Assembly (NCBI GenBank): GCA_029856235.1
Contig: JAHQWP010000218.1
Coordinates: 70-64,069 of the forward strand
Origin: Promethearchaeia archaeon
Lineage (GTDB): Archaea > Asgardarchaeota > Lokiarchaeia > Sigyniarchaeales > SOKP01
Direction of reading: 5' to 3'
DNA: 64,000 nucleotides
Shown here: piece after piece, positions 10,478 through 62,206 of the stretch
Layout of the letters: every line of letters starts with the position of its first letter
Position numbering within the stretch: position 1 is the stretch's first letter
Notes under the pieces: model-generated
Told to the model about the DNA's origin: nothing
What the model saw: the letters and a program-made list of their open reading frames with translations, nothing else
Databases searched by the model: none
Position numbers and translations under genes: made by a program

Positions 10478-10497
10478 AAAAAAGTAAGAAATTGAAT

Positions 10498-10743: not shown

Positions 10744-10847
10744 TAATTTAGGATTTCGATTAGATATGGATAAATGATTTCTTTGGTATATAAATTTAAC
10801 ATTTTTATCGTAATTAAAAAATATAATAGAGAGTTTGATTGATTATA

Positions 10848-25333: not shown

Positions 25334-27742
25334 TTATTGAATTTTTATTTTATTTCGTTCTTTTAAAAGTAATAGTAAAGAGATTCCTAAAATGCTAAAG
25401 ATGATAAATAGACCATATCCGATAACAGGGTCTCCAGTTTCTAGGCAATCGTTATTTTCAAATACATTCCCAACGCAATCTCCAGATTCTCTGAAGCATT
25501 CACCTTTATTTCTAACTTTGTTATTCCTTATAGTATTATAGCTGCTATCACGAAAATCAATTCCATAATGTCCACTCCCATCAATAGAATTGTTGACAAT
25601 TAAATTAGAATCACTCTCCCCTAATTGAATGCCATCCGTATAAGAAGTGATATGATTAGAATCTATAGTATTGTTTGATGATTCATAAATATCAATTCCA
25701 TGAAAATCACTATCTATGGTATTATGGCTTATTTGATTGAAATTACTTTGAAAGCTAATTCTTATTGGAGTTATACAGGCACTGAAATCATTGTCAGACA
25801 CATTATTGTTTTCACTATTCATATATAGATGCACTCCTCTGGTGTATGACAAAAAAGTATTGTCATAAACCTCATTATCACTACCACCACTAATAAGAAT
25901 ACCATTATGAGAATCCGTGAATCCTTGATCTAAATGATCTTGGAAAATGTTATGGAAAATCTTGTTACGTTGAGAACTACCTACATCTAAACCGTTATTA
26001 TGATTTCCAGAGATAGCATTAGAAGAGATATTGGAGTCACTTATAGTTGTATATATGCCTGTGTCGCCATTATAGTCTGCAAAATTCATCGAGATTTCAT
26101 GCTTTCTTCCAGAAGAAATCCGTATCCCATGCTCATGATTATAAGACGCAGTATTTCCTTGAATAGTATTGTTAAATGACCCATGGACATATATCCCATA
26201 ACCGTTTCCAAATCCATAATCATGCCCATAATAATAAGAGCCAAAGAAATTATTATTTGCTTCGTTTGATTGAAGAGTACAATTTACGCTATTTTGTATG
26301 AAGATACCTCCATCTCCATTGAAATTAGTTATTGAATCGACTATTTCACACAAATCGCAGTTATTAAGATAAATTCCAAATCCAGTATTATTATTTGACA
26401 CAATATCAGATAATATTACATTGCGACATTCAATTAGACTCGCACCTATAGTTCCAAAACTAAGATCTAAATTTGAAGCTTGAGAATCGTTACACCTTAA
26501 TAAAACAACTTGGCCAGCGTTAACAAAATCACTGTTAGATAGATTTTTAGTAGAATTATAATAATATAATTTTTTACCATTTACTAAATTTGTGTTAGAA
26601 ACAAAATTGGTGATTAACGAATCAGTCGAGCCCCAAACATTTACACCGCAATTAAAAAGCTCATTATCCGTTATATTGTTATACTCCACATTATCTATAT
26701 TAATACCACAGATATGGTTATTGCTAGCGTTATTAAGGTTAATTTTGTTGTATTGGACTATCTCATAACCGGTCCAATCGGTCAGATCAATACCAATAGT
26801 GTTATCAAAAACAGTGTTTGAACTTATGTTATTAAAGGTAGCGCCACCTGCTAGTTTGATTCCAGAATCTGTATTATTGAAAACTATATTTTCTGTGATA
26901 TGATTGTTGCTAGTATATCCCATTCTTATTCCATCGTTGTTTCTCGTAATGATATTCTCTGAGACAGTATTATTTTTACATGAATTTAATACTATCCCCT
27001 CTTGACCGTTGTTCGTAATCGTATTCTTAATTAACTGGTTATTTTCGCCGCTTAAAGATATTCCGTCATCATCGCTATTGGTTATATGATTTTCTGAGAT
27101 CATATTATTATTCCCATCCACTATTAATCCTCTATTTCTATCCGAATTAGATATCGTATTGTTAAAAATAGTTGTCCCATTACAATTTTCAAGATACATA
27201 TTAAATTCACGAGTAGATCTAATGATATTCCCTGAAAACCAATTATCATAGCTATTTAGGAAGTAAACGCCATACTTATTATAAAACAGGTCACAATCTA
27301 CTACTCTCCCGTTGGATACATTATCGAACTCTATTGCGTAAGCCTCGAAATTACCATAAACATCTTTTATTCCACAGTCGTTAATTCTGAAGTGGACATC
27401 TGAATTCCTTATTTCTATAGCGTTAGAACCGTATCCAGGAGCAAAAAATGTATTTTCAATTAAATATGGATTTAAAAAAGTATTGCCAGGACCACCTGAG
27501 CACCACGCGTAAGTAGATGCGGTATATGCCCAATCCATCGTGGGATTAGTATTATCAATCTCGATATCAGTAAAGTTGTAGAGATACGAGGTTTTTAAGG
27601 AATCTTTTTCAAATTCCGTGTTGATATCACTTTCCTTTTCAGTAAAATAAAAACCATCGTAAAAGAAATTGAATGTAAAAGATATTCCTAACAAAATTAC
27701 GCATATTATAAAAAGCATTTCTATCTTATTTTTAGATTTCAT
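25334..27742 (-). CDS. right-handed parallel beta-helix (NosD/pectate-lyase-like) surface protein, C-terminal TM anchor (copy 1)
   Basis: 802 aa. Signal/anchor at the N-terminus. Dozens of ~22-aa N/G/I-rich repeats (NxIxxNxxxGIxL). C-terminal GYGLFIIFSILGISLLLLL + KERNK. Confidence 0.85.
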   Translation of the reverse strand: MKSKNKIEMLFIICVILLGISFTFNFFYDGFYFTEKESDINTEFEKDSLKTSYLYNFTDIEIDNTNPTMDWAYTASTYAWCSGGPGNTFLNPYLIENTFFAPGYGSNAIEIRNSDVHFRINDCGIKDVYGNFEAYAIEFDNVSNGRVVDCDLFYNKYGVYFLNSYDNWFSGNIIRSTREFNMYLENCNGTTIFNNTISNSDRNRGLIVDGNNNMISENHITNSDDDGISLSGENNQLIKNTITNNGQEGIVLNSCKNNTVSENIITRNNDGIRMGYTSNNHITENIVFNNTDSGIKLAGGATFNNISSNTVFDNTIGIDLTDWTGYEIVQYNKINLNNASNNHICGINIDNVEYNNITDNELFNCGVNVWGSTDSLITNFVSNTNLVNGKKLYYYNSTKNLSNSDFVNAGQVVLLRCNDSQASNLDLSFGTIGASLIECRNVILSDIVSNNNTGFGIYLNNCDLCEIVDSITNFNGDGGIFIQNSVNCTLQSNEANNNFFGSYYYGHDYGFGNGYGIYVHGSFNNTIQGNTASYNHEHGIRISSGRKHEISMNFADYNGDTGIYTTISDSNISSNAISGNHNNGLDVGSSQRNKIFHNIFQDHLDQGFTDSHNGILISGGSDNEVYDNTFLSYTRGVHLYMNSENNNVSDNDFSACITPIRISFQSNFNQISHNTIDSDFHGIDIYESSNNTIDSNHITSYTDGIQLGESDSNLIVNNSIDGSGHYGIDFRDSSYNTIRNNKVRNKGECFRESGDCVGNVFENNDCLETGDPVIGYGLFIIFSILGISLLLLLKERNKIKIQ

Positions 27743-27886: not shown

Positions 27887-30295
27887 TCATTTATTTTTTT
27901 TTATTTGTTTTTTTAAAAGTAATAGAAAAGAGATTCCTAATACGCTAAAGAGGATGTATAAATCAAATCCACCGATAATATCTCCAGTTTCTTGGCAGAC
28001 ATTATTTTCAAATACATTCCCAACGCAACCTCCAGATTCTACAAAGCAATTAGCTTTATTTCTTATTGTGTTATCTCGTATAGTGTTATAACTAGCATGA
28101 TGGAGTTCAATACCAGTAAAGCCACTCCCCTTAAGAGTGTTATTAACAATTAAATTATAATCACTATCCATTGCTTTTATGCCTGATTGATAACTAGTAA
28201 TTTCATTAGAATCTACAGTATTATTTGAGGATTCTTCTATATCAATTCCCCCCCAATCACTATTGATGGTATTATAACTTAAGTAATTGTGATGGCTATT
28301 GTAGTATATTTTGATTGGTGTTATACAGTCACTAAAATCGTTGTTAAAAACAACATTGTCTTCACTAGATGAATATAGGTGCACTCCTCTGGTGTATGAT
28401 GAAAATGTATTATCATAAATGTCATTCTGTATACTATTCGTTAAATAAACGCCATTGTGAGATGTCAAGAACCCTTGACCGGAATGGTCTTGTACGATGT
28501 TCTGATAAACCTTGTTATCTGTACAAGCATCTAAATGCAAACCGTTATCGTAATTTCCAGAAATAGTATTTGAAAATATATTCGTGTTTCGTAGTCCAAC
28601 TACAAAAATACCTGAGTCGCCATTGTAATCTACATAATTCATCGAGATTTCATGATCTCTTCCAGATGGGATCTCTATCCCATGCTCGTGGTTATAAGAC
28701 GCTGTATTTCCTTGAATACTGTTATTAAAGGAGCCATGGGCATAAATTCCATTGCCAATTCCAAAATCATAAAGATAGCCATAAATATAAGAGCCAAAGA
28801 AATTATTATTTGCTTCGTTTGATTGAATAGTGCAATTAAAACTATTTTTCATAATAATTCCACCATCTCCGTTGAAATTAGCTTCCGATTCTCCTATTTT
28901 ACATAAATCGCAGTTATCAAGAAAAATACCATATACAGTATTATTATTAGACAATATGTTGGAGAATACTACATTACGGCATTCAATTAAAATAAGACCG
29001 ATAGTGCCGAAACTAAGATCTAAATTTGAAACTTGAGAATCGTTGCACCTTACCAATATAACTTGACCAGCGTTAACAAAATCACTGTTAAATAAATTAC
29101 TGGTTGAATTATAAAAATAAAGCTTTTTACCATTCACTAGATTTGTATCGGATATAAAGTTGGTAATTAACGAATCAGTCGAGCCCCAAACATTTACACC
29201 GTTATTAATTAGATTGTTATCCGTTATGTTATTATACTCCACATTATCTATATTAATACCACAAAGAGCATTATTGCTAGCATTATTTAAGTTAATTTTA
29301 TTATACTGAACAGTATTATATTGCTCGGTCAGATCAATACCATAAGTGTTATACTCAACGGTGTTTTCAGTTATATTATTGAAGTTAGCCTCATCTCCAT
29401 CTAACCTGATTCCAGAAATTCTATTATATGAAGCTATATTTTTTTTTATGTGATTATTAGTAGCATAACGAATTCTTATACCGTTTAAGTAATTAGCGAT
29501 AATAATATTCTCGGAGATAGTATTATTTTTACAATCAAATAGTGCAATCCCATCATCTCCGCTATTCATAATAGTATTCTTAATTAACTGGTTATTTTCA
29601 CCGGATAAATAGATTCCGTAATCAGCAGTATGGTTTATATAATTTTCTGAGATCAAATTATTATCCCCATCAATTAGAATTGCGGAATTCCTCGTATTTG
29701 TCAAAGTATTATTGAAAATAACAGTATCATTAGAGTTTTCAAAATAAATATTGTAATCCTCAGTATTGTCAAGAACATTCCCTGAAAACCAATTATCATA
29801 ACTATTAAGGAAGTGAACGCCATACTTGTTATTAAAAAAGTCGCAATCTACTACTCTCCCGTTAGACACATTATCAAACTCTATAGCGTACGATTCCCAA
29901 TTACCCCAAGCATGTTCTATTCCACAGTCTTTAATTCTGAAGTGGACATCTGAATTCCGTATTTCCATAGCATTAGGGCCATAACCTGGTGTAAATAAGG
30001 TATCCTCAATAAAATAAGGGTTTGAAATGTCTCCAGGACCACCTGAGCACCATGCGTAAGTAGATTCCGTATAAGCCCAATCCATAGAAGGATTAGTGTT
30101 ATCAATCTCAATATTTGTAAAGTTGTAGAGATACGAGGTTTTTAAGGAATCTTTTTCAAATTCCGTGTTGTTATCACTTTCCTTTTCAGTGAAATAAAAA
30201 CCACTATTAATTGTAAACGATTTGAATGTAAAAGATATTCCTAACAAAATTACGCATATTATAAAAAGCATTTCTATCTTTTTTTTAGATTTCAT
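27887..30295 (-). CDS. right-handed parallel beta-helix surface protein (copy 2, tandem paralogue)
   Basis: 802 aa, collinear with 25334..27742. The N-terminal ~90 aa and several internal blocks are nearly identical. Confidence 0.85.
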   Translation of the reverse strand: MKSKKKIEMLFIICVILLGISFTFKSFTINSGFYFTEKESDNNTEFEKDSLKTSYLYNFTNIEIDNTNPSMDWAYTESTYAWCSGGPGDISNPYFIEDTLFTPGYGPNAMEIRNSDVHFRIKDCGIEHAWGNWESYAIEFDNVSNGRVVDCDFFNNKYGVHFLNSYDNWFSGNVLDNTEDYNIYFENSNDTVIFNNTLTNTRNSAILIDGDNNLISENYINHTADYGIYLSGENNQLIKNTIMNSGDDGIALFDCKNNTISENIIIANYLNGIRIRYATNNHIKKNIASYNRISGIRLDGDEANFNNITENTVEYNTYGIDLTEQYNTVQYNKINLNNASNNALCGINIDNVEYNNITDNNLINNGVNVWGSTDSLITNFISDTNLVNGKKLYFYNSTSNLFNSDFVNAGQVILVRCNDSQVSNLDLSFGTIGLILIECRNVVFSNILSNNNTVYGIFLDNCDLCKIGESEANFNGDGGIIMKNSFNCTIQSNEANNNFFGSYIYGYLYDFGIGNGIYAHGSFNNSIQGNTASYNHEHGIEIPSGRDHEISMNYVDYNGDSGIFVVGLRNTNIFSNTISGNYDNGLHLDACTDNKVYQNIVQDHSGQGFLTSHNGVYLTNSIQNDIYDNTFSSYTRGVHLYSSSEDNVVFNNDFSDCITPIKIYYNSHHNYLSYNTINSDWGGIDIEESSNNTVDSNEITSYQSGIKAMDSDYNLIVNNTLKGSGFTGIELHHASYNTIRDNTIRNKANCFVESGGCVGNVFENNVCQETGDIIGGFDLYILFSVLGISFLLLLKKQIKKNK

Positions 30296-33781: not shown

Positions 33782-35035
33782 GTGAAATTCATGAAAAGAA
33801 TTTATCAAATACTAATAGCGATCATATTTAGTGTATTTCTTACTCTAATTGAAATTGTTGTAGAAATTCTCTTTTTTTCTAGCTATATAGAGCCAAGTGC
33901 GTACTATTTCTTTTATACTTTCTTAATTCTATTTACAGGTTATTTCTATATTTTTCTTCTAATTTTTCTAAGTTACGGATTAAAAAATGATAAAAGAGAA
34001 TTTAATAAAATAATTTCGGTAAAAGTTCTGGGATTCTTACTCCTTGCGATACATCTTGTTTTTTTCTTTCTAGTTAGAATATCTATCTGGGTATTTGCTC
34101 CGTTGATATCTGATACTTTTGAATTAATTTCCTTATATGTATCTTTTGCAGTAATGCCTGCTATCTTCATTACATTTTTCGTATTTGGGGTTAACAACGA
34201 ACGAAATTATGGAAACTATGTAACATCATTTTCCATCCTTTATCTTATTTATTTCATTATAACTCTATTGCACCACTTTTTTATTTCTCCAGTACTCATA
34301 ATCGGAGCTGACAGAACATTAGTTCTTGGGACTACATTCACGACACTTCAAGTGTTACTAGTGTATTTAGCAGCGGGTTATCTTTTCTTTTTTGGCATTC
34401 GAACCAAATTACCTCATTTTGTCTTAATAAGTTTTTCATGGGCATATTACAGCGTGTATCGGCAAATATCAGATTTAATAGACACAATGGGTAAGGATAG
34501 TGATGAATATATCTTCATGCTCTTAATAATTATAATCTGTTTTCTAGGTATAATTGTTTCGATCCGATTTTTTGAACTAGGAAAAAGGCTTAAAAGAGGA
34601 TTGCGAGTATTTATAAGCCACGCTGTCGAAGACTTTGACAGTTATCGTATTAAAGCTCTCGCGGACTATTTAAAAATTCAAAAAAAGATAGGCCATGTGT
34701 ATTTTTGTGAAGAGGGACTAACAGGAAACATTGATAAGTGGATGAAAAAAACAGTTCATCGGAGTCAAGTTTTAGTTTTTATCTCAACTCCTAATTCCCT
34801 GAAATCAAAAGATAGCCTTTTTGAACTAGAGCTTGCGCGCAAACATAAATTACATATAATACCGATTTTAGGCTTTGAAATGGTGTGGGAAGATTTAGAA
34901 GAATTAGATCTTCATCGGGAGTTTGGTTCCCCTTTTAGCCCAATGGAATTTGAAAAATTCTGTGATGAAATATATCAACATATTTTAAAATTCAGAAAAG
35001 ACAAAAAAATAGAGGACGTTGAAGAAAAGAAGTAA
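33782..35035 (+). CDS. polytopic membrane protein with C-terminal TIR domain
   Basis: About 8 TM helices (aa 1-265), then VFISHAVEDFDSYRIKALADYLK...VLVFISTPNSLKSKDSLFELELA...IIPIL. This is a TIR-like beta-alpha pattern with a candidate catalytic Glu in SLFELE. Alternative ATG at 33791. Confidence 0.7.
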   Translation: MKFMKRIYQILIAIIFSVFLTLIEIVVEILFFSSYIEPSAYYFFYTFLILFTGYFYIFLLIFLSYGLKNDKREFNKIISVKVLGFLLLAIHLVFFFLVRISIWVFAPLISDTFELISLYVSFAVMPAIFITFFVFGVNNERNYGNYVTSFSILYLIYFIITLLHHFFISPVLIIGADRTLVLGTTFTTLQVLLVYLAAGYLFFFGIRTKLPHFVLISFSWAYYSVYRQISDLIDTMGKDSDEYIFMLLIIIICFLGIIVSIRFFELGKRLKRGLRVFISHAVEDFDSYRIKALADYLKIQKKIGHVYFCEEGLTGNIDKWMKKTVHRSQVLVFISTPNSLKSKDSLFELELARKHKLHIIPILGFEMVWEDLEELDLHREFGSPFSPMEFEKFCDEIYQHILKFRKDKKIEDVEEKK

Positions 35036-36065: not shown

Positions 36066-36075
36066 AAAAAAAAAA
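36066..36075 (-). terminator. oligo-T tract (A10 on + strand)
   Basis: Downstream of the UFM1-like gene ending at 36093. Confidence 0.35.
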
Positions 36076-36092
36076 GTATATTTTTTATTTTA

Positions 36093-36425
36093 CTAAAAAC
36101 ATCCAGCAGTACTAGCAGGAATTAAGAGAATGTCGTCGCCATTACTCAAGTTATAATCTCTTAATTGATCGTTATCGTCCATGGTAACTCCCCCAGACGA
36201 TAAGTGAAATTCGTCAGGATCGAGCCCAAATAAATTTCCTAACGTATTCTTAATGTCGCTTACTCTATTTGCGTCGTTCACTGTTAATTTTTCCTTCTTC
36301 TCGCCAGGACCTATAGTGGACATGAAGTACAAAGTAGACTTCTTTCCGGAGGTAGGCGTCTTTGAAGCCGGTGTTTTTGACTTAACAGGTTCAAATTCGT
36401 CGTCAAAATCTTCTTCATAACTCAT
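36093..36425 (-). CDS. ubiquitin-fold modifier-like protein (UFM1-like beta-grasp) with acidic/basic disordered N-terminus
   Basis: Residues ~31-108 align by eye to ubiquitin/UFM1. LYFMSTIGPGEKKEKLTV corresponds to beta1-beta2; LRDYNLSNGDDILLIPASTAG-CF compares with UFM1 FLKHGSELRIIPRDRVG-SC. Confidence 0.55.
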   Translation of the reverse strand: MSYEEDFDDEFEPVKSKTPASKTPTSGKKSTLYFMSTIGPGEKKEKLTVNDANRVSDIKNTLGNLFGLDPDEFHLSSGGVTMDDNDQLRDYNLSNGDDILLIPASTAGCF

Positions 36426-36540
36426 TTAAATCACATTTGTTTTTCTTGAGATTATTACTCTCATGGTAATTTAGTATATTAAAACCAATTGGAATGATAA
36501 TGAAGTTTTAAATTTTTAAAAATCCTTTTTAGTATTTAGC

Positions 36541-38454
36541 TTAATTTGAAGGTAATAATTGCATTTCTTCCTCGATCTCTGCAAGAAAAAGGTCTACAAT
36601 TGCTAACCATCTATTCTTAGATTCCATATCGCCAATAATTTTACTTGTTAATTCTTTTCCTAACTCAAGATTTTGAGCTGCTAACTCGATATTTTCTAGT
36701 GCGGTGTAACAAATTCCGATTTTGATATAAGTTTGATGGATAAACCAGGCATTTGAATCAATTTCTATGGTTTTTTCGAATTCTTTTATGGCTTTTTTGT
36801 ATTCTTTAAAGTGTATTAAGATTTCTCCGTATGTATCGTGATAGATTCCTTTTTCTGGTTCGTTTTTTACGAGTTCGCGAAGAAGTTCCAGTGCTTCTTG
36901 TTTTTTATCCAGATATGATAACCAATACGCTTTATAATTACGAAGAAAATTGTCTTTTGGATATTTTTCAATTAAATCTTCAATGATTTCTAGGCCCCCT
37001 TCTAAATTTTTATCTTTTTTAAGAGTATACGCCTTTTTTATCATAATATCAGTCTCTTTTTCAGGAAATAGCTTCATCATCTCCTCCAATACCCTTAAAA
37101 CATCATTGTATTGGTTAAAATAGAGTAGAATTCGTAATTTTGAATTGTATAAATCGTAATTCGTTGGAGCTAAGGAAATTTCTTTATCGATTTCATTAAT
37201 TTTTTCTTTGTATTGAGAATCTAATGCGTTAGAATTCAGCGATTCCAATATATCTGTCATGTTCTGCCAAATTATCCCTTCGAGTTTATCATCTGTTCCT
37301 ATTAATTCTTTTTTTATCTCAATTTTATATGCTAAATATTTAATATAACCGGGTAAAAAAGCTCTAAGTGATTCCTTGAAATGTGCATGAAATAAAATTT
37401 CACAAATTTCGTTAAGAATATCATCTACAACAGAATTCATGTCTCCTAAATCTACAAATTTCTCCAAGTATTTGTTTGCCGCTATATGTTCTTCAGTAAT
37501 AGCTCGAAGTATCTTTTCTAATTTCTCATCTGAATGAAAATAATAATGTTTGTCTGGAGAAATATCTAATTTAAAAAACTGTAAATCATATAAGTCGCTT
37601 TCTACGATCTCATTTATCCAAAAATCAAGGATTCGCTTTTTAATTTCATAAAATCTCGAAAACTCCTCAAAAGATAAATAGTCAGGATAAAAATCGGGAT
37701 GATTAATTGAAAGAAAGAGGAGAATTTTGTGAAAATCTTCTTCGTCTTTTAGGATTGCATTAACTTTTGAGTAATCTAGTTTCAATATATTATTGAGAAA
37801 TCTAAATTTGACATGATTATCGTTAATATTAAATTTGTCAAAAAAGGGTTTAGTCTTTGTAGTAATCTCATCAATTCGTTTTCTTTCCTCTTCTAAGATA
37901 GTTTGTCTATCTAAATTGTATAGTTGTAGAATCTTCGAATATTCAGCTTTTCCCGATTGAGTAATTAAATATCTTTTATTTTCGTTGATGAGTAATCCCT
38001 TTTGGATTAATGAGTTTAAACTTTTTGATAACGACGATTGATTTATAGAAAATGGTTCTTCAAGAAAATCAGACCGTTTACAATAGCCATTATTGTAAAC
38101 CATCCATAGAATCCAATGGAAATAATTCCTCCCTCTTTTTAGGATTGCATCAGGTGGATAACTTAACACTCTTGCAGTTTTTCTCTCTTCTGATAGTTCA
38201 TTAAATCTCTCCTTCCCCTCTGGAGTTATTCTGTATTGTCCTCGGGAATACTTTTCTATATATCCTTTGAAGATTAATTTTGTGAAATGACGCGATAACG
38301 TAGAAATGGGAATTTCAATAGGCTTTTGTTCAAAGTTAGACCATTCACAACTTTCATTATTTGATAGCATCCAAAGAATTATATGGTCATAATTCCTTCT
38401 TTGTAGTTTCGAGGGGTTAAGAATCTCATCAGAAGGGTAATTTAATTTTCCCAT
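36541..38454 (-). CDS. dual winged-helix + TPR repeat protein
   Basis: Two N-terminal wHTH copies (HIILWMLSNNESCEWSNF...STLSRHFTKLIFKGYIEK..YRITPEGKERF and HWILWMVYNNGYCKRSDF...SSLSKSLNSLIQKGLL...YLITQSGKAEY). The C-terminal ~200 aa are TPR-like. Confidence 0.7.
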   Translation of the reverse strand: MGKLNYPSDEILNPSKLQRRNYDHIILWMLSNNESCEWSNFEQKPIEIPISTLSRHFTKLIFKGYIEKYSRGQYRITPEGKERFNELSEERKTARVLSYPPDAILKRGRNYFHWILWMVYNNGYCKRSDFLEEPFSINQSSLSKSLNSLIQKGLLINENKRYLITQSGKAEYSKILQLYNLDRQTILEEERKRIDEITTKTKPFFDKFNINDNHVKFRFLNNILKLDYSKVNAILKDEEDFHKILLFLSINHPDFYPDYLSFEEFSRFYEIKKRILDFWINEIVESDLYDLQFFKLDISPDKHYYFHSDEKLEKILRAITEEHIAANKYLEKFVDLGDMNSVVDDILNEICEILFHAHFKESLRAFLPGYIKYLAYKIEIKKELIGTDDKLEGIIWQNMTDILESLNSNALDSQYKEKINEIDKEISLAPTNYDLYNSKLRILLYFNQYNDVLRVLEEMMKLFPEKETDIMIKKAYTLKKDKNLEGGLEIIEDLIEKYPKDNFLRNYKAYWLSYLDKKQEALELLRELVKNEPEKGIYHDTYGEILIHFKEYKKAIKEFEKTIEIDSNAWFIHQTYIKIGICYTALENIELAAQNLELGKELTSKIIGDMESKNRWLAIVDLFLAEIEEEMQLLPSN

Positions 38455-40047: not shown

Positions 40048-41739
40048 ATGTTTCTTCCAGAAATTAAAGGTTTGAATCCCGTAAAAGAACTTAGAGAAGA
40101 GGGGAAAATAAAGGAAGCCTTACATATTGTTTTAGAATTAGAACAAGGAGATGATCTTTCTCTTAAAGAATTACTCTCATATAAACTTGTTAAAGCTAAT
40201 CTATTACGTATTTCAGGAAACCACTTAGCCGCAATTGAAATTGCTAAAGAGATTTTTCAAGAATTTAAGAAACTAGGAGATTTAGTATCGTCATTTGACG
40301 CTTTACTCATTCAAGGTTATTCCTATATGATAACGGCCAATCTAACTCAAGGCGAAGATTTAATTAGGCAAGCAGAAAATTTATTTAAAATAATTAAAAC
40401 AAAATTTTCAATAGACCTAAGAGAAAGAGAATCTTTCTTGGTAAGGATACAGTCTATGTCTTACTTTTTTAAGGGAGATATTCTCACTTCTCTTGAATTG
40501 AATAAAAAAGCTTATGAACTAGCCAAAGACACAGGCAATAAAGCATTGATTTCTACGAGTCTTAATAATATTGCTGACAAATTTTATCATATGAAAGAAT
40601 ATGATAAAGCAATCATGTATGCTAAGCAAGCTGTTAAAGTTAATTATAGCCCATCATTGGCAGCTGCGTTATCTACTTTAATTGAAATTTATGTCAGTAA
40701 GGGAGATATTAAAGAAGCGAAAGTTTATCTTGATCAATTGCGTTATCATTCCAAGAAACTTGATTTTAAACGAAAAAAAAATACATATTACAGTTCAAAG
40801 GCTACGATATTAAAATCAAGTCTACGAGCAAGAGATCGTATCAAAGCGGAAGATATATTTAAAAAGTTAGCTATGGACAATACAATATTTAGTTATATAC
40901 GGATTGAAGCAATTATTGACTTATGTGATTTATATCTCACTGAACTTCGGATAACTAATGACCCTGAGGTAATAAACGATATACACCCATATATTCAAGA
41001 ATTGTTAAGTATTGCAGAAAAGCAACATTTATATTTATATTTAGCCGAAACTTACCTTTTGCAAGCAAAACTTTCATTATTAACTTTGGATATAAAGGAA
41101 GCTAAACGATTTTTAACTCAAGCTCAAAATATAGCAGAATCAAATGGGATAAAACGATTAGCAATGAAAATCTCATATGAGCATGATGAATTACTCAGAA
41201 AAACCAAAATGTGGGAGAATTTGAAAGTTTCTGAAGCGTCTTTATCTGAACGTTTGGAGCTTACTGGTTTGAACGAACAAATGGAAAATATGGTAAAAAG
41301 ACGAATGATTGAAGTTCCAGAGATATCAAAAGAAGACCCTGTTATGCTCTTAATCTTAACGGAGGGTGGTAATCTTTTGTTCTCTAAAAAATTTATAAAG
41401 GCTTTTTCTCTTGAGGATGATATATTAGGGGGCTTTCTAACTTCGATAAATTATTTTATTAGTGAGGTATTTTCAGAAGGTCTTGATAGGGCAGTTTTTG
41501 GTCAATACACTCTTCTTATGATGCCCATTCAACCATTTTTAGTTTGTTATATCTTTAAAGGGGACTCGTATTTTGCTCACCATAAGATTAAAAATTTCCT
41601 TGATTCCATACAGAATGATAGTGTTATTTGGCAATCTTTACAGAAATTTTTCCAAAAGAGTAAATCAGTTCAATTTGACAATATTCCGTCGCTTGAATCG
41701 TTGATAACAGAGATCTTTATTGAGAAAGAAAAATCTTAG
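40048..41739 (+). CDS. TPR-repeat protein with conserved C-terminal longin/roadblock-like alpha/beta domain (copy 1)
   Basis: 563 aa. TPR-like helical repeats (e.g. YHMKEYDKAIMYAKQAVKVN). C-terminal domain from ~nt 41335 (EDPVMLLILTEGGNLLFSKKF...DDILGGFLTSINYFISEVFSEGLDRAVFGQYTLLM). Confidence 0.75.
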   Translation: MFLPEIKGLNPVKELREEGKIKEALHIVLELEQGDDLSLKELLSYKLVKANLLRISGNHLAAIEIAKEIFQEFKKLGDLVSSFDALLIQGYSYMITANLTQGEDLIRQAENLFKIIKTKFSIDLRERESFLVRIQSMSYFFKGDILTSLELNKKAYELAKDTGNKALISTSLNNIADKFYHMKEYDKAIMYAKQAVKVNYSPSLAAALSTLIEIYVSKGDIKEAKVYLDQLRYHSKKLDFKRKKNTYYSSKATILKSSLRARDRIKAEDIFKKLAMDNTIFSYIRIEAIIDLCDLYLTELRITNDPEVINDIHPYIQELLSIAEKQHLYLYLAETYLLQAKLSLLTLDIKEAKRFLTQAQNIAESNGIKRLAMKISYEHDELLRKTKMWENLKVSEASLSERLELTGLNEQMENMVKRRMIEVPEISKEDPVMLLILTEGGNLLFSKKFIKAFSLEDDILGGFLTSINYFISEVFSEGLDRAVFGQYTLLMMPIQPFLVCYIFKGDSYFAHHKIKNFLDSIQNDSVIWQSLQKFFQKSKSVQFDNIPSLESLITEIFIEKEKS

Positions 41740-41914: not shown

Positions 41915-43603
41915 ATGTTTCATCCTGAGATTAAAGGTTTGAATTCAGTAAGGCAACTTAGAGAAGAGGGGAAAATAAAGGAAGCCTTCCAAATTATTTT
42001 AGAATTAGAACAAGGAGACGATCTTTCTCTCAAAGAATTACTCTCATATAAACTTGTTAAAGCTAATCTATTAATTCAGTTAGGAAAATTTTTAGACGCA
42101 ATTGAACTTGCTAAGGAAATTTTTCAAGAATTTCAGAAACTAGGAGATTTAGTATCATCATTAGATGTTTTACTCATTCAAGCTTATACCCATATGATAA
42201 TGATAAATTTAAGTGAATGTGAAGATGTAATTAGGCAAACTGAAGATTTATTTAAAATAATTAAAGCAACATCTTCACTAGATCTAAGAGAAAGAGAATC
42301 TTTGTTTGAAAGGATAAAGGCTGGTATTCATTTTTTTAAGGGGGATATTCACACTTCTCTAGAATTGAATAAAAAAGCTTATGAACTTGCCAAAGACACT
42401 GGCAATAAAGCATTGATTTCTGCGAGTCTTAATAATATTGCTGACAAATTTTATCATATGAAAGAATATGATAACGCAATAAAATATGCAAAAGAAGCCT
42501 TTAAGATTAAAAATAATCGACACTTGGCAGTTGTGTTAGGTACCTTAATTGAAACTTATGTCAGTAAGGGAGATATTAAAGAAGCGAAAGTTTATCTTGA
42601 TCATTTGCGTTATCATTCCAAGAAAATTGATACCAAAAATTCTAAAACTTTTTATTATATTTCTAAGGCTACGATATTAAAATCAAGTCTACGAGCAAGA
42701 GACCGTATTAAAGCTGAAGAAATATTTAATAAGTTAGCTTTGGACGATACATTACTTAGTGAGCCACGGATTACAGCGATCATAAATTTATGTGATTTAT
42801 ACCTAACTGAACTTCGGATAACTAATGACCTTGAGATACTAAATGAGATACAACCATATATTCAAAAGTTGCTATATATTGCTGAAGATCAACATTTATA
42901 TTTATATTTAGCCGAAACTTATTTTTTGCAAGCCAAACTTTCATTATTAACTTTAGATATAAAGAAAGCTAAGCGATTTTTAACTCAGGCTCAAAAAATA
43001 GCAGAATCATATGGTATAAAACGATTGGCAATGAAAATTTCGTACGAACATGATGAATTACTCAGAAAAACCAAAATGTGGGAGAATTTGAAAACTTCTG
43101 ATGTTTCTTTATCTGAACGTTTGGAGCTTACTGGTTTGAACGAGCAAATGGAAAATATGATAAAAAGACGAATGATAGAAGTTCCAGAAATATCAAAAGA
43201 AGACCCTGTTATGCTCTTAATCTTAACGGAGGGTGGGAATCTTTTATTCTCTAAAAAATTTTTGACAGATTTTTCTTTTGAAGACGATATTTTAGGAGGT
43301 ATCTTGACCACCATAAATTTTATTATTAGTGAGATATTTTCTGAAGGGCTTGATAGAGCAGTTTTTGGTCAATATACGCTTCTTATGAAGCCTGCTCAAC
43401 CATTTTTAGCATGTTATATCTTTAAAGGACACTCGTATTTTGCTCACTATAAAATTAAAAATTTTATTGATTCCATACAGAATGATAGTGTTATTTGGCA
43501 ATCTTTACAGAATTTTTTCCAAAAGAGTAAATCAGTTCAATTAGACGATATTCCCTCGTTTGAATCATTGATTACAGAAATCTTTGTTGAAAAAAAAAAA
43601 TAG
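41915..43603 (+). CDS. TPR-repeat protein with conserved C-terminal longin/roadblock-like domain (copy 2)
   Basis: 562 aa, collinear near-duplicate of 40048..41739. C-terminal domain from ~nt 43199. Confidence 0.75.
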   Translation: MFHPEIKGLNSVRQLREEGKIKEAFQIILELEQGDDLSLKELLSYKLVKANLLIQLGKFLDAIELAKEIFQEFQKLGDLVSSLDVLLIQAYTHMIMINLSECEDVIRQTEDLFKIIKATSSLDLRERESLFERIKAGIHFFKGDIHTSLELNKKAYELAKDTGNKALISASLNNIADKFYHMKEYDNAIKYAKEAFKIKNNRHLAVVLGTLIETYVSKGDIKEAKVYLDHLRYHSKKIDTKNSKTFYYISKATILKSSLRARDRIKAEEIFNKLALDDTLLSEPRITAIINLCDLYLTELRITNDLEILNEIQPYIQKLLYIAEDQHLYLYLAETYFLQAKLSLLTLDIKKAKRFLTQAQKIAESYGIKRLAMKISYEHDELLRKTKMWENLKTSDVSLSERLELTGLNEQMENMIKRRMIEVPEISKEDPVMLLILTEGGNLLFSKKFLTDFSFEDDILGGILTTINFIISEIFSEGLDRAVFGQYTLLMKPAQPFLACYIFKGHSYFAHYKIKNFIDSIQNDSVIWQSLQNFFQKSKSVQLDDIPSFESLITEIFVEKKK

Positions 43604-43709: not shown

Positions 43710-44264
43710 ATGAAGAACTCGGAGGAATTTCGATTTAAGATTGTAGTCGTTGGAGATGGAGCAGTAGGTAAAACATCCTTAATTAAGAAATTCACTAAGG
43801 GAACATTTGAAAAGGATTATGTAAAAACCATAGGAGCTCAATTATCAAAATATAGCAAAGAAATTAATGGAGACATGATTAGATTAATATTTTGGGATAT
43901 CGCCGGTCAAGCTGATTTCAATTTTCTCCATCACTTGTTTTATAAAGAAAGTAGAGCAGCTATCATAGTAATTAGCCTTGAGGAGAACGATTTAGGCAAG
44001 AACAGCTTCATGCATATAGAAAATTGGTATAATGAATTAAGAAAGTATTGTGGCGATATACAGGTTGTTTTATTCGCTAATAAAGTTGATTTAGTAGAGA
44101 ATGATAATATTAATAACATGAAAATTCAAGAACTTGTTCACAAATATAATTTCCTTGGAAGTTTCATTACATCTGCAAAAACGGGGGAGGGTGTAATAGA
44201 AGCATTTAACGCGATTATTGAGAAGTTATACAACAAATATAAACAACTTTCTACTCAAAAATGA
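43710..44264 (+). CDS. Rab/Ras-like small GTPase
   Basis: G1 GDGAVGKT, switch I YVKTIG, G3 WDIAGQ, G4 NKVD, G5 TSAKTG. 184 aa, no C-terminal Cys. Confidence 0.9.
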   Translation: MKNSEEFRFKIVVVGDGAVGKTSLIKKFTKGTFEKDYVKTIGAQLSKYSKEINGDMIRLIFWDIAGQADFNFLHHLFYKESRAAIIVISLEENDLGKNSFMHIENWYNELRKYCGDIQVVLFANKVDLVENDNINNMKIQELVHKYNFLGSFITSAKTGEGVIEAFNAIIEKLYNKYKQLSTQK

Positions 44265-46622: not shown

Positions 46623-46883
46623 TTAACCAATTGATTGTTTCCATCTTCTTAAGGCTCTCTTTTTTTTTATTAAATCTGATTCATCCTTAACTACAGGGGC
46701 TACGGTAATCTTTTCCTTCTGTTCTAGATTGACATCTTCTTTTAAGTAATATTTACCATCGTCATCATTCTTTGAAATAATCCCTGCCTTCACAAATTTA
46801 TTTTTTTGATAGGATGCAGCTCCAAGAGAAACCATTTTTAAGGTCTTTTGAATTTCCCTTACTTCCGCCCGATTATGTGTCAT
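46623..46883 (-). CDS. truncated paralogue of the wHTH protein (possible gene remnant), start overlaps stop of beta-helix gene
   Basis: MTHNRAEVREIQKTLKMVSLGAASYQKNKFVKAGIISKNDDDGKYYL matches residues ~60-105 of 45963..46526. It lacks the first helix and the TM tail. Confidence 0.35.
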   Translation of the reverse strand: MTHNRAEVREIQKTLKMVSLGAASYQKNKFVKAGIISKNDDDGKYYLKEDVNLEQKEKITVAPVVKDESDLIKKKRALRRWKQSIG

Positions 46884-48115
46884 AAGAAATCCAAATCCTC
46901 TTGAGGTTTTTTAAACATTTTACCATTTTTATATATCATAAAAACAGAAACTCCAACGATGCAGATACTTATAAAGAGAATAGTTGGCAGGTAATTTAAT
47001 GATGGCTTAAGTGTACAATCGTTATCTTGAATTACATTCCCTTGGCAATTTAATTCAACGATACATTCATCATTTCCTATTACATAATTTCCCGAAACGA
47101 TGTTATAATCGCTATCGGAAAGAATTATCCCCCACCGGTTGTAATTTGCGGTGTTTCCTGAAATAGTGTTATAATTGCTATAGAAAAGAACAATCCCACA
47201 TTCGGTATTATAAAATGCGGTGTTTCCCGAGATGATGTTATAATTACTATCTACTAAGCATATCCCACTCCAATTATTGTTATTTACTGTGTTTCTTAAG
47301 AAAGTGTTATTATAACTATATGCTATCCACATCCCATGCATGTTATTATCATTCATAATGTTTCCCGAAATGATGCTATTATTCCCAGCTAAATGTAAAC
47401 CATTCATATTATTATCATTCATAGTGTTTCCCGAAATGACAGTGTAATTACAGGCTAATATATATATCCCACACCATGTGTTGTTATTTGCAGTGTTTCC
47501 CGAGACTGTATTATTAAAACTATCAGATAAAAGTATCCCACCACGGTTGTTATTTACGATATTTCCAGATAATGTGTTGTTATAACAACTCCCACCACCC
47601 CAACCATCGCCAAATACTATCCCCAACTGACTATATGAACAATTATTACCAATCAATTGGGAGTTATTAACATTCAATAATCCGATTCCAGCTTCTGATC
47701 CCCATTCCGCATTATAGAGGGTACAATTTACGATTTTAAAATACACATTGGAATTTTCAATTAAAATAGAATTTCCCGAGCCTTCACCATCTATTTCTAA
47801 ATCTTCAATAATATAAGGATCAGAATAAGTACCATTCCCCGTACATATTCCACCTTCTTTAGCAACAGTCCAATTAATACTTGGATTGTCATCGTTAATA
47901 TGAATTTTTCCTGATACTGCTGGGATTTTTGGTTTTTCCTTGTCAGAATTAATAACATCGTTGTCATCAGTAATAAAACTTGGACTAATTGTAAACCCTA
48001 GTGCTAAAGCGAAAAGGATTCCAAAAGTGATTACTATTATTATTTCTATTTTTACTTTTGATTTCATTTTGGTTTCACCATTATAATATAAATTTGTTTT
48101 TGGATGTGATTTCAA
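46880..48115 (-). CDS. right-handed parallel beta-helix surface protein (short, 411 aa), C-terminal TM anchor
   Basis: The N-terminal region resembles the 802-aa paralogues (NPSINWTVAKEGGICTGNGTYSDPYIIEDLEIDG...VYFKIVNC). Repeats of (I/V)SGNT(A/M)N(N/D)N. TM at LPTILFISICIVGVSVFMI. Confidence 0.8.
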   Translation of the reverse strand: MKSHPKTNLYYNGETKMKSKVKIEIIIVITFGILFALALGFTISPSFITDDNDVINSDKEKPKIPAVSGKIHINDDNPSINWTVAKEGGICTGNGTYSDPYIIEDLEIDGEGSGNSILIENSNVYFKIVNCTLYNAEWGSEAGIGLLNVNNSQLIGNNCSYSQLGIVFGDGWGGGSCYNNTLSGNIVNNNRGGILLSDSFNNTVSGNTANNNTWCGIYILACNYTVISGNTMNDNNMNGLHLAGNNSIISGNIMNDNNMHGMWIAYSYNNTFLRNTVNNNNWSGICLVDSNYNIISGNTAFYNTECGIVLFYSNYNTISGNTANYNRWGIILSDSDYNIVSGNYVIGNDECIVELNCQGNVIQDNDCTLKPSLNYLPTILFISICIVGVSVFMIYKNGKMFKKPQEDLDFL

Positions 48116-48419: not shown

Positions 48420-48827
48420 TTAAAGTTTATTCCAATCATATATATTGAGATCATCAATTCTCTCAAAATGTTTTATATTTCCGGAGTAAAGGGATTCTTG
48501 ATGCACAATACAAATACTAGCAATTAATTCATCCATAATACCAATAGGATGTCCCCTAATTTGGAGATCTGAAGAAAGTTTGGCAAACTCTTCTGCAGAA
48601 TCATTCTCAAATAAAAAAATATCATCTAACGCATCAATTATTAACTTAACCTTCATTAATCCTTTAGCAACATTTTTCATGGAATAGCAACCTTTGTACA
48701 ATTCAGCTACATTGAAAATCGTCGTGTTCAAAGACTCCTCTTTTTTTTTTAGATTCTTCATTTTTATATAACTATCATTCTTTCCTCTGAGATAATATAT
48801 TAAAACATCTGTATCTAATACTACCAT
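48420..48827 (-). CDS. vapC: PIN-domain toxin VapC
   Basis: MVVLDTDVLIYYL opening with conserved acidic residues. 135 aa. 11 nt downstream of the antitoxin gene. Confidence 0.85.
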   Translation of the reverse strand: MVVLDTDVLIYYLRGKNDSYIKMKNLKKKEESLNTTIFNVAELYKGCYSMKNVAKGLMKVKLIIDALDDIFLFENDSAEEFAKLSSDLQIRGHPIGIMDELIASICIVHQESLYSGNIKHFERIDDLNIYDWNKL

Positions 48828-48838
48828 TTTAATTCTCC

Positions 48839-49063
48839 TCAGATTCTAGCTGGTCTTCTTCGTTCTTGATATATCTCTTCAATGATTGTGTCCCATTCAT
48901 CATCTTCTTTAAATGCTCCAGCTAAGTCTTCTAATATTTTTTTTCTTGACTTAGTTTTTTTTAATAATCTGCTAATGAGATCTGCAAAGGATTCTCCCTT
49001 TCGCTTTTCTTTTCGCAGTTTTTCGTATGTTTCAGGAGGTAAAGAAATAGTTTTATTTGCCAT
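48839..49063 (-). CDS. vapB: VapB-type antitoxin (archaeal short helical antitoxin)
   Basis: Likely start at ATG 49063 (MANKTISLPPETYEKLRKEKRKGESFADLISRLL); the ORF track extends to 49111. Confidence 0.7.
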   Translation of the reverse strand: MANKTISLPPETYEKLRKEKRKGESFADLISRLLKKTKSRKKILEDLAGAFKEDDEWDTIIEEIYQERRRPARI

Positions 49064-49181
49064 AATAGAATTATAGTTATAAATTATATATATTATTTTG
49101 TGTAAAGTCATAAAAAATTCAAAATTTCGTTATAAATTAAATTTTAAATTCTTTAATAAAAAAGAAATATTAGTATAATAA

Positions 49182-52574: not shown

Positions 52575-52799
52575 ATGGCAGATTTAACACTTAATGCAGT
52601 AGGAAAAAAATGCCCAATGCCTGTCCTCATGACTAAAAAGGAGTTAAAGAAAATGAGCTCAGGACAAACTCTTGAATTGGTTGTCGACGACAAAGGAGCC
52701 TTAAAAGACGTACCTGCTCTTATCAAAAAGACTGGGGATACGATTGTCGAGACTAATGAAGATAACGGCCATATAACCTTTACAATTCAAAAAGCTTAA
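52575..52799 (+). CDS. tusA: TusA/SirA-like sulfur carrier protein
   Basis: CPMP motif (GKKCPMPVLMTKKELKKM). The ORF track starts at TTG 52566; ATG at 52575. Confidence 0.8.
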   Translation: MADLTLNAVGKKCPMPVLMTKKELKKMSSGQTLELVVDDKGALKDVPALIKKTGDTIVETNEDNGHITFTIQKA

Positions 52800-52829
52800 A
52801 CCTTAGACTTACGAGAAAAGTGATTAACA

Positions 52830-53198
52830 ATGACAACCTATTCTTTTTTTATTAGTACTGAACCTTACAAATTCGAAGCGAGCGACTCGTTAATAGAGAT
52901 TTGTAAATCTTTGATAAAGAAAGGGCATACTATTAAGGGATTTTTTTTCTTTGGAACTGGCGTTTACAACATAAAGGGAGACATTAGCAGTGGAAGCTCT
53001 ATAAGAGATATTCCCAAAAAGCTAGAAACATTTGCAACTGAGAATAATATTCCCACGGTTGGATGTTCAACCTGGGTAAGTCTAACGGGATTAAAAGAAT
53101 CGAGCTTTATTAAAGGAGCTACAGAAGAAGGGTTAGGCGACTTTTCTAACTGGGCTGTAGAATCAGACAAATTAATTGTATTTGGAGCGGGGGGTTAA
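52830..53198 (+). CDS. dsrE: DsrE/TusD-like sulfur relay protein
   Basis: 122 aa. FFISTEPY opening. Candidate active Cys in PTVGCSTWVSLTGL at the position of the TusD/DsrE catalytic Cys. Confidence 0.7.
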   Translation: MTTYSFFISTEPYKFEASDSLIEICKSLIKKGHTIKGFFFFGTGVYNIKGDISSGSSIRDIPKKLETFATENNIPTVGCSTWVSLTGLKESSFIKGATEEGLGDFSNWAVESDKLIVFGAGG

Positions 53199-53203
53199 GT
53201 AAA

Positions 53204-53572
53204 ATGGTAGAATCTGTAGTTATAATAGCTGATCACTCGCCAATAGGTAAGAATTCAGCGTTGGAAGCAGTTCGTATTGGCTCTGGATTTGTAGCTCTTG
53301 GAGAATATATTAATTGTCAAATCGTATTTACGGGAGACGCTGTTTATTTACTTAGCAAAAACGCGAAACCAGAGGCAGTTGGAATGGACACATTCGATGA
53401 AGTTATGGAAATCGCAGACTTATCAGATTTAGAACTTTACGTAGTGGATCAAGCTTTAAAAGATGCTGGGATGAGTGCTGATGACTTAGTTGAATACGAA
53501 AATTTGAAGATCGTCACAATTGAAGAAGTCGTTAATTTAATTGAAAACGCAGACACAAGTTTTAGATTTTAA
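53204..53572 (+). CDS. dsrF: DsrF/TusC-like sulfur relay protein
   Basis: 122 aa. VVIIADHSPIGKNSALEAVRIG..., ELYVVDQALKDAGM. Confidence 0.65.
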   Translation: MVESVVIIADHSPIGKNSALEAVRIGSGFVALGEYINCQIVFTGDAVYLLSKNAKPEAVGMDTFDEVMEIADLSDLELYVVDQALKDAGMSADDLVEYENLKIVTIEEVVNLIENADTSFRF

Positions 53573-53588
53573 GGGAGGAGAATAAAAA

Positions 53589-53930
53589 ATGTCTGAAACC
53601 AGGAAAGTATTGTATTTATTTGGATATAGTGAAATGACTGGAACACAATTAGAGCGATTATTACCGATCTTAAAAGCACAAATTAACAAAGGTTCGCAAC
53701 TTGGATTAGTTCTAATTCACGACGGAGTTATTGGGATCAACAAGAAAGGCAAGGTTCCGGAGAAGATGGAAGAATTACTCAATATGAATATCGTTGTTTA
53801 TGCGATGATCCCTGATTTACAAGCTCGTGGTATAGATCTGGAACAAATTCACGATAAGGTTAAAGCAATTGAATATGACGATTTAATCGATTTATTAGAT
53901 GTAACACCAAAAATAATATCTTGGATGTAA
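53589..53930 (+). CDS. dsrH: DsrH/TusB-like sulfur relay protein (no Cys)
   Basis: 113 aa. LVLIHDGV, VYAMIPDLQARGI. SD-like GGGAGGAG upstream. Confidence 0.65.
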   Translation: MSETRKVLYLFGYSEMTGTQLERLLPILKAQINKGSQLGLVLIHDGVIGINKKGKVPEKMEELLNMNIVVYAMIPDLQARGIDLEQIHDKVKAIEYDDLIDLLDVTPKIISWM

Positions 53931-54052
53931 ATACTCCAGGAGATCAAAATAGATTTTTTGAAAATTATGGTAATAAAATATTACAAAATTTTGGAATATA
54001 AATGAATTAAAAATTATAAAACAAAAAAAACAAAAAACAGAAGTGAAAAAAT

Positions 54053-54469: not shown

Positions 54470-54483
54470 ATAAATTTTTAAAA

Positions 54484-54496
54484 TTTTTTTTTTTTT
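54484..54496 (+). terminator. oligo-T tract between dsrE-like gene and hdrC
   Basis: T13, 15 nt after the stop at 54469 and 25 nt before the hdrC ATG. Confidence 0.35.
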
Positions 54497-54520
54497 CAAG
54501 TTAATAAAAAGGTGGAAAAA

Positions 54521-55087: not shown

Positions 55088-55090
55088 TAA

Positions 55091-62166: not shown

Positions 62167-62206
62167 CGAATTAAAAACAATATTAAAAAATAAAGAGGTA
62201 TGAATT

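Follow-up and report, generated by a model that had tools for sequence, protein, structure and literature searches.

A probable precursor of a Lokiarchaeial ubiquitin-type modifier with an Ala-Gly end, encoded by a stand-alone gene

We analysed a 64,000-nucleotide stretch of a Promethearchaeia contig (JAHQWP010000218.1, assembly GCA_029856235.1), hereafter the window, within which all coordinates are given. At 36093-36425, on the minus strand, it carries a small open reading frame (ORF) for a ubiquitin-like protein (the window Ubl). The explanation that we consider likely is that this protein is the pro-form of a Lokiarchaeial ubiquitin-type modifier, supplied by a stand-alone extra copy of the modifier gene. 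The modifier family is a distinct one, recognisable by its Ala-Gly end and by an N-terminal extension with an acidic stretch and an SKTP motif. A first-pass annotation of the DNA had described the product as UFM1-like; our result is mostly corrective in this respect, as the window gene belongs to the known archaeal ubiquitin system and is not a prokaryotic UFM1. Among prokaryotes, Asgard archaea have the ubiquitin systems most closely related to the eukaryotic machinery, so the identity of the modifier matters.

Fold, family and termini of the window Ubl

The 333-nt ORF runs from an ATG to a TAG and has 110 codons, in a window of 33% G+C. Its translation, MSYEEDFDDEFEPVKSKTPASKTPTSGKKSTLYFMSTIGPGEKKEKLTVNDANRVSDIKNTLGNLFGLDPDEFHLSSGGVTMDDNDQLRDYNLSNGDDILLIPASTAGCF, closes on Ala-Gly-Cys-Phe (...LLIPASTAG-CF, the product terminus being ...DDILLIPASTAG-CF), which agrees with the first-pass call of an ORF at this position with a glycine followed by a Cys-Phe tail. 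That this is a true gene under strong purifying selection, and not a chance ORF, is evident from 876 homologues found at E<=1e-3 in a database search, from a ubiquitin-family Pfam match above the cut-off and from ratios of nonsynonymous to synonymous substitution rates (dN/dS) that are 0.012 and 0.033 in comparisons with the two relatives nearest to it. In the latter comparisons dS was 0.7 or more, with synonymous sites half to fully saturated; against the remaining relatives the synonymous sites are saturated while the proteins are still 85-90% identical. The best 120 of the 876 homologues share 75-97% identity with the window Ubl, and the source records of the closest are Promethearchaeota (Lokiarchaeia) and other Asgard metagenome-assembled genomes, which makes the host a Lokiarchaeial archaeon.

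The ubiquitin family of Pfam (PF00240) is matched by the window Ubl at 28.7 bits, above the family cut-off of 25.4, and by all 38 diverse relatives that were scanned (best E 6.7e-23). In the same Pfam scans Ufm1 (PF03671) gave no match to the window Ubl at E<=1 and was not among the 25 families most often matched by the 38 relatives. The SUMO-like model Rad60-SLD was also matched by 27 of these relatives and stayed below threshold for the window Ubl (15.8 vs 23.8 bits), while ThiS matches occurred in three relatives and neither ThiS nor MoaD matched the window Ubl. Across the 38 diverse members G39, P40, G79, P103, A107 and G108 are invariant.

The beta-grasp ubiquitin fold proposed at first pass, with structure prediction and a Foldseek comparison as the way to check it, was borne out. 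An AlphaFold2 model built on a 37-sequence alignment (mean predicted local distance difference test score, pLDDT, 76.7) has a core of pLDDT 85-91 at residues ~29-105, with residues 1-16 and 108-110 disordered. Its elements run beta-beta-alpha-beta-(3-10 helix)-beta, with strands at residues 29-36, 43-50, 73-77 and 98-103 and helices at 55-66 and 88-91, which is the beta-grasp order. Foldseek returned 627 matches in the PDB at E<=1e-3. The first of them was the ubiquitin of Caldiarchaeum subterraneum (CsUb) bound to an Rpn11 homologue (6fno_D, E 2.4e-7), followed by ubiquitin variants, NEDD8 and ubiquitin, and a further CsUb structure (6fj7) was also matched; TM-scores normalised by target length were 0.74-0.88 for single-domain targets (CsUb, ubiquitin, NEDD8). 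No UFM1 entry was present among the best 50 of the 627 matches, and a sequence search of the PDB with the window Ubl led to ubiquitin too.

Profile comparisons separate the two candidate families in the same direction. Aligned with hhalign, a family profile of 40 non-redundant Ubl domains matched the ubiquitin profile with 98% probability (E 2.9e-13, 23% identity over 65 columns) and the UFM1 profile with 6.7% probability, in register over 64 columns. The corresponding hidden Markov model (HMM) of the family gave 29.8 bits to a Heimdall ubiquitin, 29.1 to human ubiquitin, 21.3 to the Lokiarchaeial protein Lokiarch_37670 and 8.8 to UFM1; in the reverse direction a UFM1 HMM gave family members at most 5 bits each. 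The UFM1 profile came from a search with human UFM1 whose 120 listed matches were all animal UFM1s of at least 87% identity, and its diversity is low (Neff 1.4), yet the gap between ubiquitin and UFM1 is still large and consistent across methods. The window protein is thus a ubiquitin-family beta-grasp Ubl and not a relative of UFM1.

The C-terminus carries the case for a precursor. In the 120 closest homologues S-T-A-G is nearly invariant; 32 of them stop exactly at the glycine and the rest bear tails of 1-4 residues, most often YF (38), RLI (10) or YI (7), with CF, IF, CFE and others among the remainder. Relatives down to ~36% identity always end in [LI]IP-x-[ST]-x-A-G with tails of 0-7 residues, and among copies located in genomes 89 of 138 stop at the glycine, the others having variable tails. 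Overall, ~60% of family genes stop at Gly and tails elsewhere run to 1-7 or more residues. A Gly-Gly terminus was found neither in the window Ubl nor in any family member examined; the end is always Ala-Gly. Tails that vary or are missing, combined with polyprotein junctions, classically mark a modifier in which proteolysis exposes the glycine. Such junctions exist here as well: two tandem genes, one with three units (P0121, 372 aa) and one with two (P0122, 250 aa), carry head-to-tail repeats, in which every unit has an acidic linker, then a [KS]KTP motif and then a beta-grasp domain ending in ..STAG or ..SQAG, and the next unit begins immediately after the AG. The three-unit gene was recovered from two short contigs (loci L093/L094), one in a JGI record and one in a Logan record. 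No mention of polyubiquitin-like genes in Asgard archaea was found in the literature searched.

Because Ala-Gly is invariant, the tails are variable or absent and tandem units are joined at AG, the reading of the window Ubl as a precursor with Cys-Phe as a removable pro-peptide is well supported by comparison across the family. The first pass had likewise proposed a precursor in need of C-terminal processing, with the glycine two residues from the end as the functional terminus, and both points gain support here. It had also held that orthologues should keep the glycine and the tail, of which the former is invariant and the latter is missing in the majority of genes noted above. The contrast that it drew with ubiquitin as a protein ending in Gly-Gly overlooks that ubiquitin genes encode precursors too, such as that of CsUb with its 9-residue pro-peptide. 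A Gly-Gly end is typical of ubiquitin, NEDD8, SUMO, Urm1 and SAMPs, and both UFM1 and ATG8 lack it. The family's Ubl domain, again ending in ..AG, also forms the extreme C-terminus of several longer proteins, where it lies behind a HerA-type ATPase (P0140), CDC48_N and VWA domains (P0153), a Roadblock/LC7 domain (P0126) or zinc ribbons (P0128/P0129/P0131); these may be fusions of modifier and cargo or merges made by gene calling.

The N-terminal extension (residues 1-28) consists of an acidic and aromatic run, EEDFDDEFEP, followed by a conserved KSKTPxxKxPxxGKK segment. Its pLDDT is 42-67. Within the 37-sequence alignment S16-K17-T18-P19, K22, P24, G27 and K29 are invariant, and [KS]KTP is retained in relatives of 40-55% identity and in every poly-Ubl unit. 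An earlier description of this region as ~30 charged, low-complexity residues does not capture the invariant SKTP motif and lysines. By analogy with SUMO, the extension could be a chain-forming or partner-binding segment. We rejected a reading of 'DDEFEPV' as a LIR/AIM-like motif, as the aromatic residue is Leu in most homologues.

The stand-alone copy and the operon of its orthologues

Loci of homologues, 80 in all, came from exact-protein look-ups and from scanning species-representative genomes, of whose 139 matches the best 80 were kept; gene models were derived from tblastn matches and simple extension. It is common for a genome to have two or three genes for the ~110-aa Ubl, one in an operon and others stand-alone, that is, without genes for an activating enzyme (E1), a conjugating enzyme (E2) or a JAB protease within the 8-kb flank fetched. 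In a neighbour-joining distance tree based on about 110 residues the window Ubl falls in a clade composed solely of stand-alone tailed copies (tails CF, CFE, II, IF in four cases, and IY). Six of the seven other genomes in this clade also have the operon copy (L016, L038, L020, L021, L024 and L032), a co-occurrence from which the window's organism can be expected to carry the operon elsewhere. Tails do not mark stand-alone copies as such: we rejected this idea since they follow lineage and not locus, being present in 7 of 25 stand-alone copies, 23 of 57 operon copies and 16 of 48 copies of the Ubl upstream of the operon.

Across the eight clade members ~80 nt upstream of the ATG are conserved in a 130-nt alignment even though the upstream genes differ. 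The element includes the block AAACTTCA..ATCATTCCAA..GG (36485-36508), a TATA-like TTTTAATATA 59 nt before the ATG (36475-36484) and a Shine-Dalgarno-like GTGAT just before the start (36430-36434). Past the stop codon, a run of T lies in the same place in all eight. The former would act as a promoter and the latter as a terminator, and because both are conserved they argue for an independent, monocistronic transcription unit; judged by these features and by gene context, the window gene is a stand-alone extra copy of the gene that heads the operon. A scan for bacterial sigma-70 promoters and hairpin terminators gave matches at chance level and is inapplicable to archaea.

The gene upstream (36541-38454, same strand, 115-nt gap) encodes a dual winged helix-turn-helix (wHTH) and tetratricopeptide repeat (TPR) protein, as the first pass had noted. 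This adjacency is common only to the window and its closest relative (L010), and the other clade members have an MFS transporter, an Arf/Ras-like GTPase or an unknown protein there; functional coupling of the two genes was rejected on this ground. The wHTH/TPR protein is not similar to the dual-wHTH protein found next to the operon copy. The clade region as a whole is loosely syntenic, with acyltransferase-3, enoyl-CoA hydratase, ADP-ribosylglycohydrolase, NosD-like and TusA/DsrE genes nearby, while the immediate neighbours change.

Among orthologues, 57 gene copies adjoin E1-E2-JAB genes, lying 75-106 nt upstream of the E1 gene, and these operon-heading Ubls are 73-86% identical to the window Ubl. 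The order is Ubl, E1 (ThiF, 195.7 bits), E2 (UQ_con, 88 bits), a JAB/Rpn11-like protease (JAB, 52.7 bits) and a membrane protein with a Cys/His-rich C-terminus; in one example locus (L005) the cluster lies at 10001-13039. In the PDB, the E1 matches UBA2, the SUMO E1, at 140 bits, UBA1 at 130 and the NEDD8 E1 UBA3 at 121, the latter nearly full length, followed by MoeB (113), ThiF (87) and UBA5 (55), and it shows no sign of being heterodimeric. The E2 is nearest to canonical UBCs (UBE2R/Ubc9 and others) with an intact HPN...Cys motif, and UFC1 is absent from its best 60 PDB matches. The protease is best matched by the Rpn11-like protein of C. subterraneum (6fjv, 64 bits) and then by Rpn11, CSN5 and AMSH, and its JAMM motif HSHPSYGCFMSRED (H-x-H-x7-S-x2-D) is intact. 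The operon of the orthologues is the known Caldiarchaeum/Asgard ubiquitin-type operon and not a UFM1 system: it contains no UBA5-, UFC1- or UfSP-type (C78) partner but a UBA2/UBA3-type E1, an HPN E2 and a JAB. The UfSP-type processing implied at first pass loses its footing in the same way, as the protease adjacent to orthologues is an Rpn11-like JAB and not a peptidase C78.

Behind the protease, a gene for ~390 aa (X387; L005 13072-14235, plus strand) encodes a protein with several predicted transmembrane segments in its N-terminal part, then a long linker rich in Ser, Thr and Arg, and a CxxC...CxxCxxxxH...CxxC module at the C-terminus. It has no Pfam match; by inspection, this protein and its orthologues are candidates for a membrane-anchored RING-type ligase (E3). 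The region upstream of the operon encodes a divergently transcribed dual-wHTH protein and two further Ubl-containing proteins: a membrane protein whose Ubl domain is non-conjugatable, and a second Ubl of greater divergence that also ends in AG. The membrane protein (X262; L005 8187-8975, minus strand) has its Ubl domain at the C-terminus, ending in ALIPSRKK without a reactive glycine. The second Ubl (L005 7743-8150, plus strand, and orthologues) is of conjugatable type, 128-135 aa long with a longer acidic N-terminus, and ends in S[VTI]AG with or without a tail.

Proposed pathway, known systems and rival readings

On the explanation that we favour, the 110-aa precursor would be trimmed after Gly108, with loss of Cys109-Phe110, most plausibly by the JAMM protease of the operon. 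This enzyme is proposed by analogy with the Rpn11 of Caldiarchaeum, which removes the 9-residue pro-peptide of CsUb; there, E1 activates CsUb only once it has been cut (PMC5654768, PMC6043591). The E1 would then adenylate Gly108, hold the modifier as a thioester and hand it to the E2 cysteine, and the modifier would be joined to lysines of target proteins, an attachment that the same JAB enzyme could undo. We infer cleavage at Gly108, the identity of the protease and conjugation. The separate locus, with a promoter of its own, probably supplies additional or differently regulated modifier, much as the several ubiquitin loci do in eukaryotes.

Among the closest known systems is that of Caldiarchaeum, whose beta-grasp ubiquitin is likewise made as a precursor with a short C-terminal pro-peptide and which, like the Lokiarchaeial orthologues, has an operon with E1 and E2. 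The window Ubl and CsUb are nevertheless only ~21% identical; CsUb ends in Gly-Gly before a 9-residue pro-peptide, in contrast to Ala-Gly before two residues, and lacks the conserved N-terminal extension of ~28 residues. The Lokiarchaeial family has several gene copies per genome, including stand-alone ones, unlike Caldiarchaeum, and where Caldiarchaeum encodes a small RING finger protein the Lokiarchaeial operon has the membrane protein described above as its putative E3. Cleavage, and activation only after it, are experimental results in Caldiarchaeum (PMC5654768, PMC6043591) and predictions for the Lokiarchaeial system. With eukaryotic ubiquitin and NEDD8, the window Ubl shares PF00240, a DYN motif and a hydrophobic last strand, and the family shares precursor or head-to-tail repeat genes at several loci as well as an E1 nearest to UBA2/UBA1/UBA3 and a canonical UBC E2. 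It differs in ending IPxSTAG instead of LRLRGG, in its N-terminal extension, in lacking the K48/K63 lysines, and presumably in being processed by a JAMM protease instead of a USP/UCH cysteine protease. SUMO also has a flexible N-terminal extension with conserved lysines, and the Rad60-SLD matches and the UBA2 match of the E1 point the same way; we regard this as resemblance only, given the sub-threshold Rad60-SLD score of the window Ubl and the almost equal scores of UBA1 and UBA3.

Several observations weigh against the pathway proposed here. Neither Pfam scans of the ORFs tested nor tblastn with the operon E1, E2 and JAB found any such gene in the window (the 3542-aa ORF and some small ORFs being covered by tblastn only), in agreement with the first pass, and because of this the link to the operon runs through homology and co-occurrence in related genomes only. 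The terminus is Ala-Gly, and its acceptance by the E1 and the JAB is a prediction; the site on which the Rpn11 of Caldiarchaeum was assayed is Gly-Gly. The tail of the window clade is non-random, [C/I][F/I/Y] with E added in one case, and this could mean a role beyond that of a cap. In a sequence alignment no lysine occupies the positions of ubiquitin K48 or K63. Finally, it may be another Ubl that serves these enzymes in Lokiarchaeia, the 'Loki ubiquitin' of Hatano et al. (2022) being a different protein, Lokiarch_37670, of 88 aa and ending in QAGG-ISIIH. Like the window Ubl it is a Lokiarchaeial beta-grasp Ubl with a tail past the reactive glycine, but it forms a separate family (21 bits by the family HMM) with a Gly-Gly end and no N-terminal extension. 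The window family is absent from the supplementary sequences of that study, while the operon E2 corresponds, by eye, to A0A0F8VF99 in its E2/UEV alignment.

Of the rival readings, a UFM1-family modifier with UfSP-type trimming and UBA5/UFC1/UFL1-like enzymes is the one suggested by the very end of the protein, where LLIPASTAG-CF resembles RIIPRDRVG-SC in the position of the proline, the non-Gly penultimate residue and the two-residue tail, and hhalign does place the families in register. Apart from the beta-grasp fold that both share, this likeness does not extend past the last strand and the tail ([IL]IP-x4-G with two residues after it, STAG-CF vs DRVG-SC), and UFM1 lacks the N-terminal extension. 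Given the Pfam, HMM, hhalign and Foldseek results above, an E1 that scores 55 bits for UBA5 against 140 for UBA2, a canonical HPN E2 and a JAB in place of a C78 protease, the UFM1 reading appears already largely refuted by sequence and partner enzymes, and we hold it to be very improbable. A 2026 structural-genomics paper (PMC12962969) describes structure-based Ufm1 homologues for nine Asgard clades and mentions multi-region matches and long disordered termini. The description would fit our Ubl family; were the two the same, we would argue that the family is still nearer to ubiquitin in sequence and in partner enzymes. There is an outside chance that the Ala-Gly Ubls are not 'the' archaeal ubiquitin but form a separate Asgard modifier lineage with a biology of its own (multi-copy and poly-Ubl genes, extension, fusions), which could be this 'Asgard Ufm1', an ancestor-like UFM1 using canonical E1/E2 and JAMM enzymes. 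A sulfur carrier of the ThiS/MoaD/Urm1/SAMP kind, served by a ThiF/MoeB-type E1, seems just as improbable as UFM1. The orthologues' E1 is of the ThiF family, with appreciable MoeB and ThiF scores, three relatives match ThiS and a TusA/DsrE/DsrH/Hdr-like cluster lies in the window at 52575-62443; against this, the window Ubl has no ThiS/MoaD match and its best matches are ubiquitin proper, its end is Ala-Gly where sulfur carriers have Gly-Gly, and sulfur transfer would need neither the E2 nor the Rpn11-like isopeptidase of the operon. The cluster is, moreover, 16 kb away, and in L092, the sole relative where it was seen, it lies at another distance from the Ubl and in another orientation, so a link to it was rejected.

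Somewhat less remote, though still unlikely, is a non-conjugated Ubl adaptor or regulator whose last residues are a drifting end without processing. The window gene does stand alone with no enzyme genes nearby, a non-conjugatable Ubl exists in the same system (X262), and the conserved motif at the N-terminus could function as a binding peptide. Yet Ala-Gly is invariant down to ~36% identity while the residues beyond it vary or are missing, multi-domain fusions always place the Ubl domain at their very C-terminal end, tandem units are joined at AG and near-identical orthologues head E1-E2-JAB operons. Least credible of all is a decaying duplicate of the operon copy with its tail produced by a stop-codon slip. 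Being a second copy, away from the enzymes and with extra C-terminal residues, the gene might invite this reading, but it is refuted by the selection analysis: dN/dS is very low at substantial dS, eight or more genomes keep the clade, along with its conserved upstream element, and tails also occur on the operon copies counted above.

As to which small protein is the modifier, our analysis points to the Ubl that adjoins the Lokiarchaeial E1-E2-JAB genes rather than to the Gly-Gly protein of the Loki experiments. Precursor, JAB, E1 and E2 make up a concrete substrate set for rebuilding the Lokiarchaeial cascade, and the Ala-Gly end offers a natural test of how much weight the Gly-Gly rule bears. 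At the level of the family, the Ala-Gly end, the acidic/SKTP extension, the multi-copy and tandem genes and the C-terminal fusions might be worth following.

Features of the gene and other genes in the window

Table 1. Features of the window Ubl gene and its flanks
Feature	Position	Strand	Basis
Complete coding sequence, probable 110-aa ubiquitin-type modifier precursor	36093..36425 (stop 36093-36095 included)	-	ORF, PF00240, homologues, dN/dS
Codons 1-28, disordered N-terminal extension	36342..36425	-	pLDDT 42-67, invariant columns in 37-sequence alignment
Codons 29-108, beta-grasp core to invariant Ile-Pro-x-Ser-Thr-Ala-Gly	36102..36341	-	AlphaFold2, Foldseek, hhalign, conservation
Gly108, predicted mature conjugating C-terminus	36102-36104	-	Invariance across family
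Codons 109-110 (Cys-Phe), predicted C-terminal pro-peptide whose removal would expose Gly108	36096..36101	-	Tail variation among homologues
Conserved upstream element of the stand-alone paralogue	36430..36508	-	130-nt upstream alignment, eight clade members
Ten-T run on the coding strand, 17 nt past the stop, likely archaeal oligo-T terminator	36066..36075	-	Conserved position

Near the Ubl gene, 33782-35035 on the plus strand encodes a multi-pass membrane protein that ends in a TIR domain (TIR_2, 31.6 bits), convergent with the enoyl-CoA hydratase gene that adjoins the Ubl; it is 96% conserved beside the Ubl in L010. On the other side, tandem paralogous MalT-type TPR proteins of 562/563 aa (40048-41739 and 41915-43603, plus strand) are directly followed by a Ras/Arf/Roc-like small GTPase (43710-44264, plus strand; Ras Pfam 128 bits) of the typical Asgard eukaryote-signature type.

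The sulfur-related cluster at 52575-62443 (plus strand) runs TusA, DsrE/DsrE/DsrH, DrsE_2, heterodisulfide-reductase-like genes (CCG, Fer4, FAD/NAD oxidoreductase, FrhB) and a second TusA-like gene, and is similar to the TusA/DsrE/Hdr genes near the Ubl paralogue in L092. A 3542-aa ORF occupies 10848-21476 on the minus strand. NosD/right-handed beta-helix proteins, likely surface proteins, are encoded on the minus strand at 25334-27742, 27887-30295 and 46880-48067, and among these NosD-type genes are two tandem 802-aa paralogues with near-identical N-termini. At 48420-49111 (minus strand), a PIN-domain toxin is paired with a VapB-type antitoxin (VAPB_antitox, 52.7 bits).

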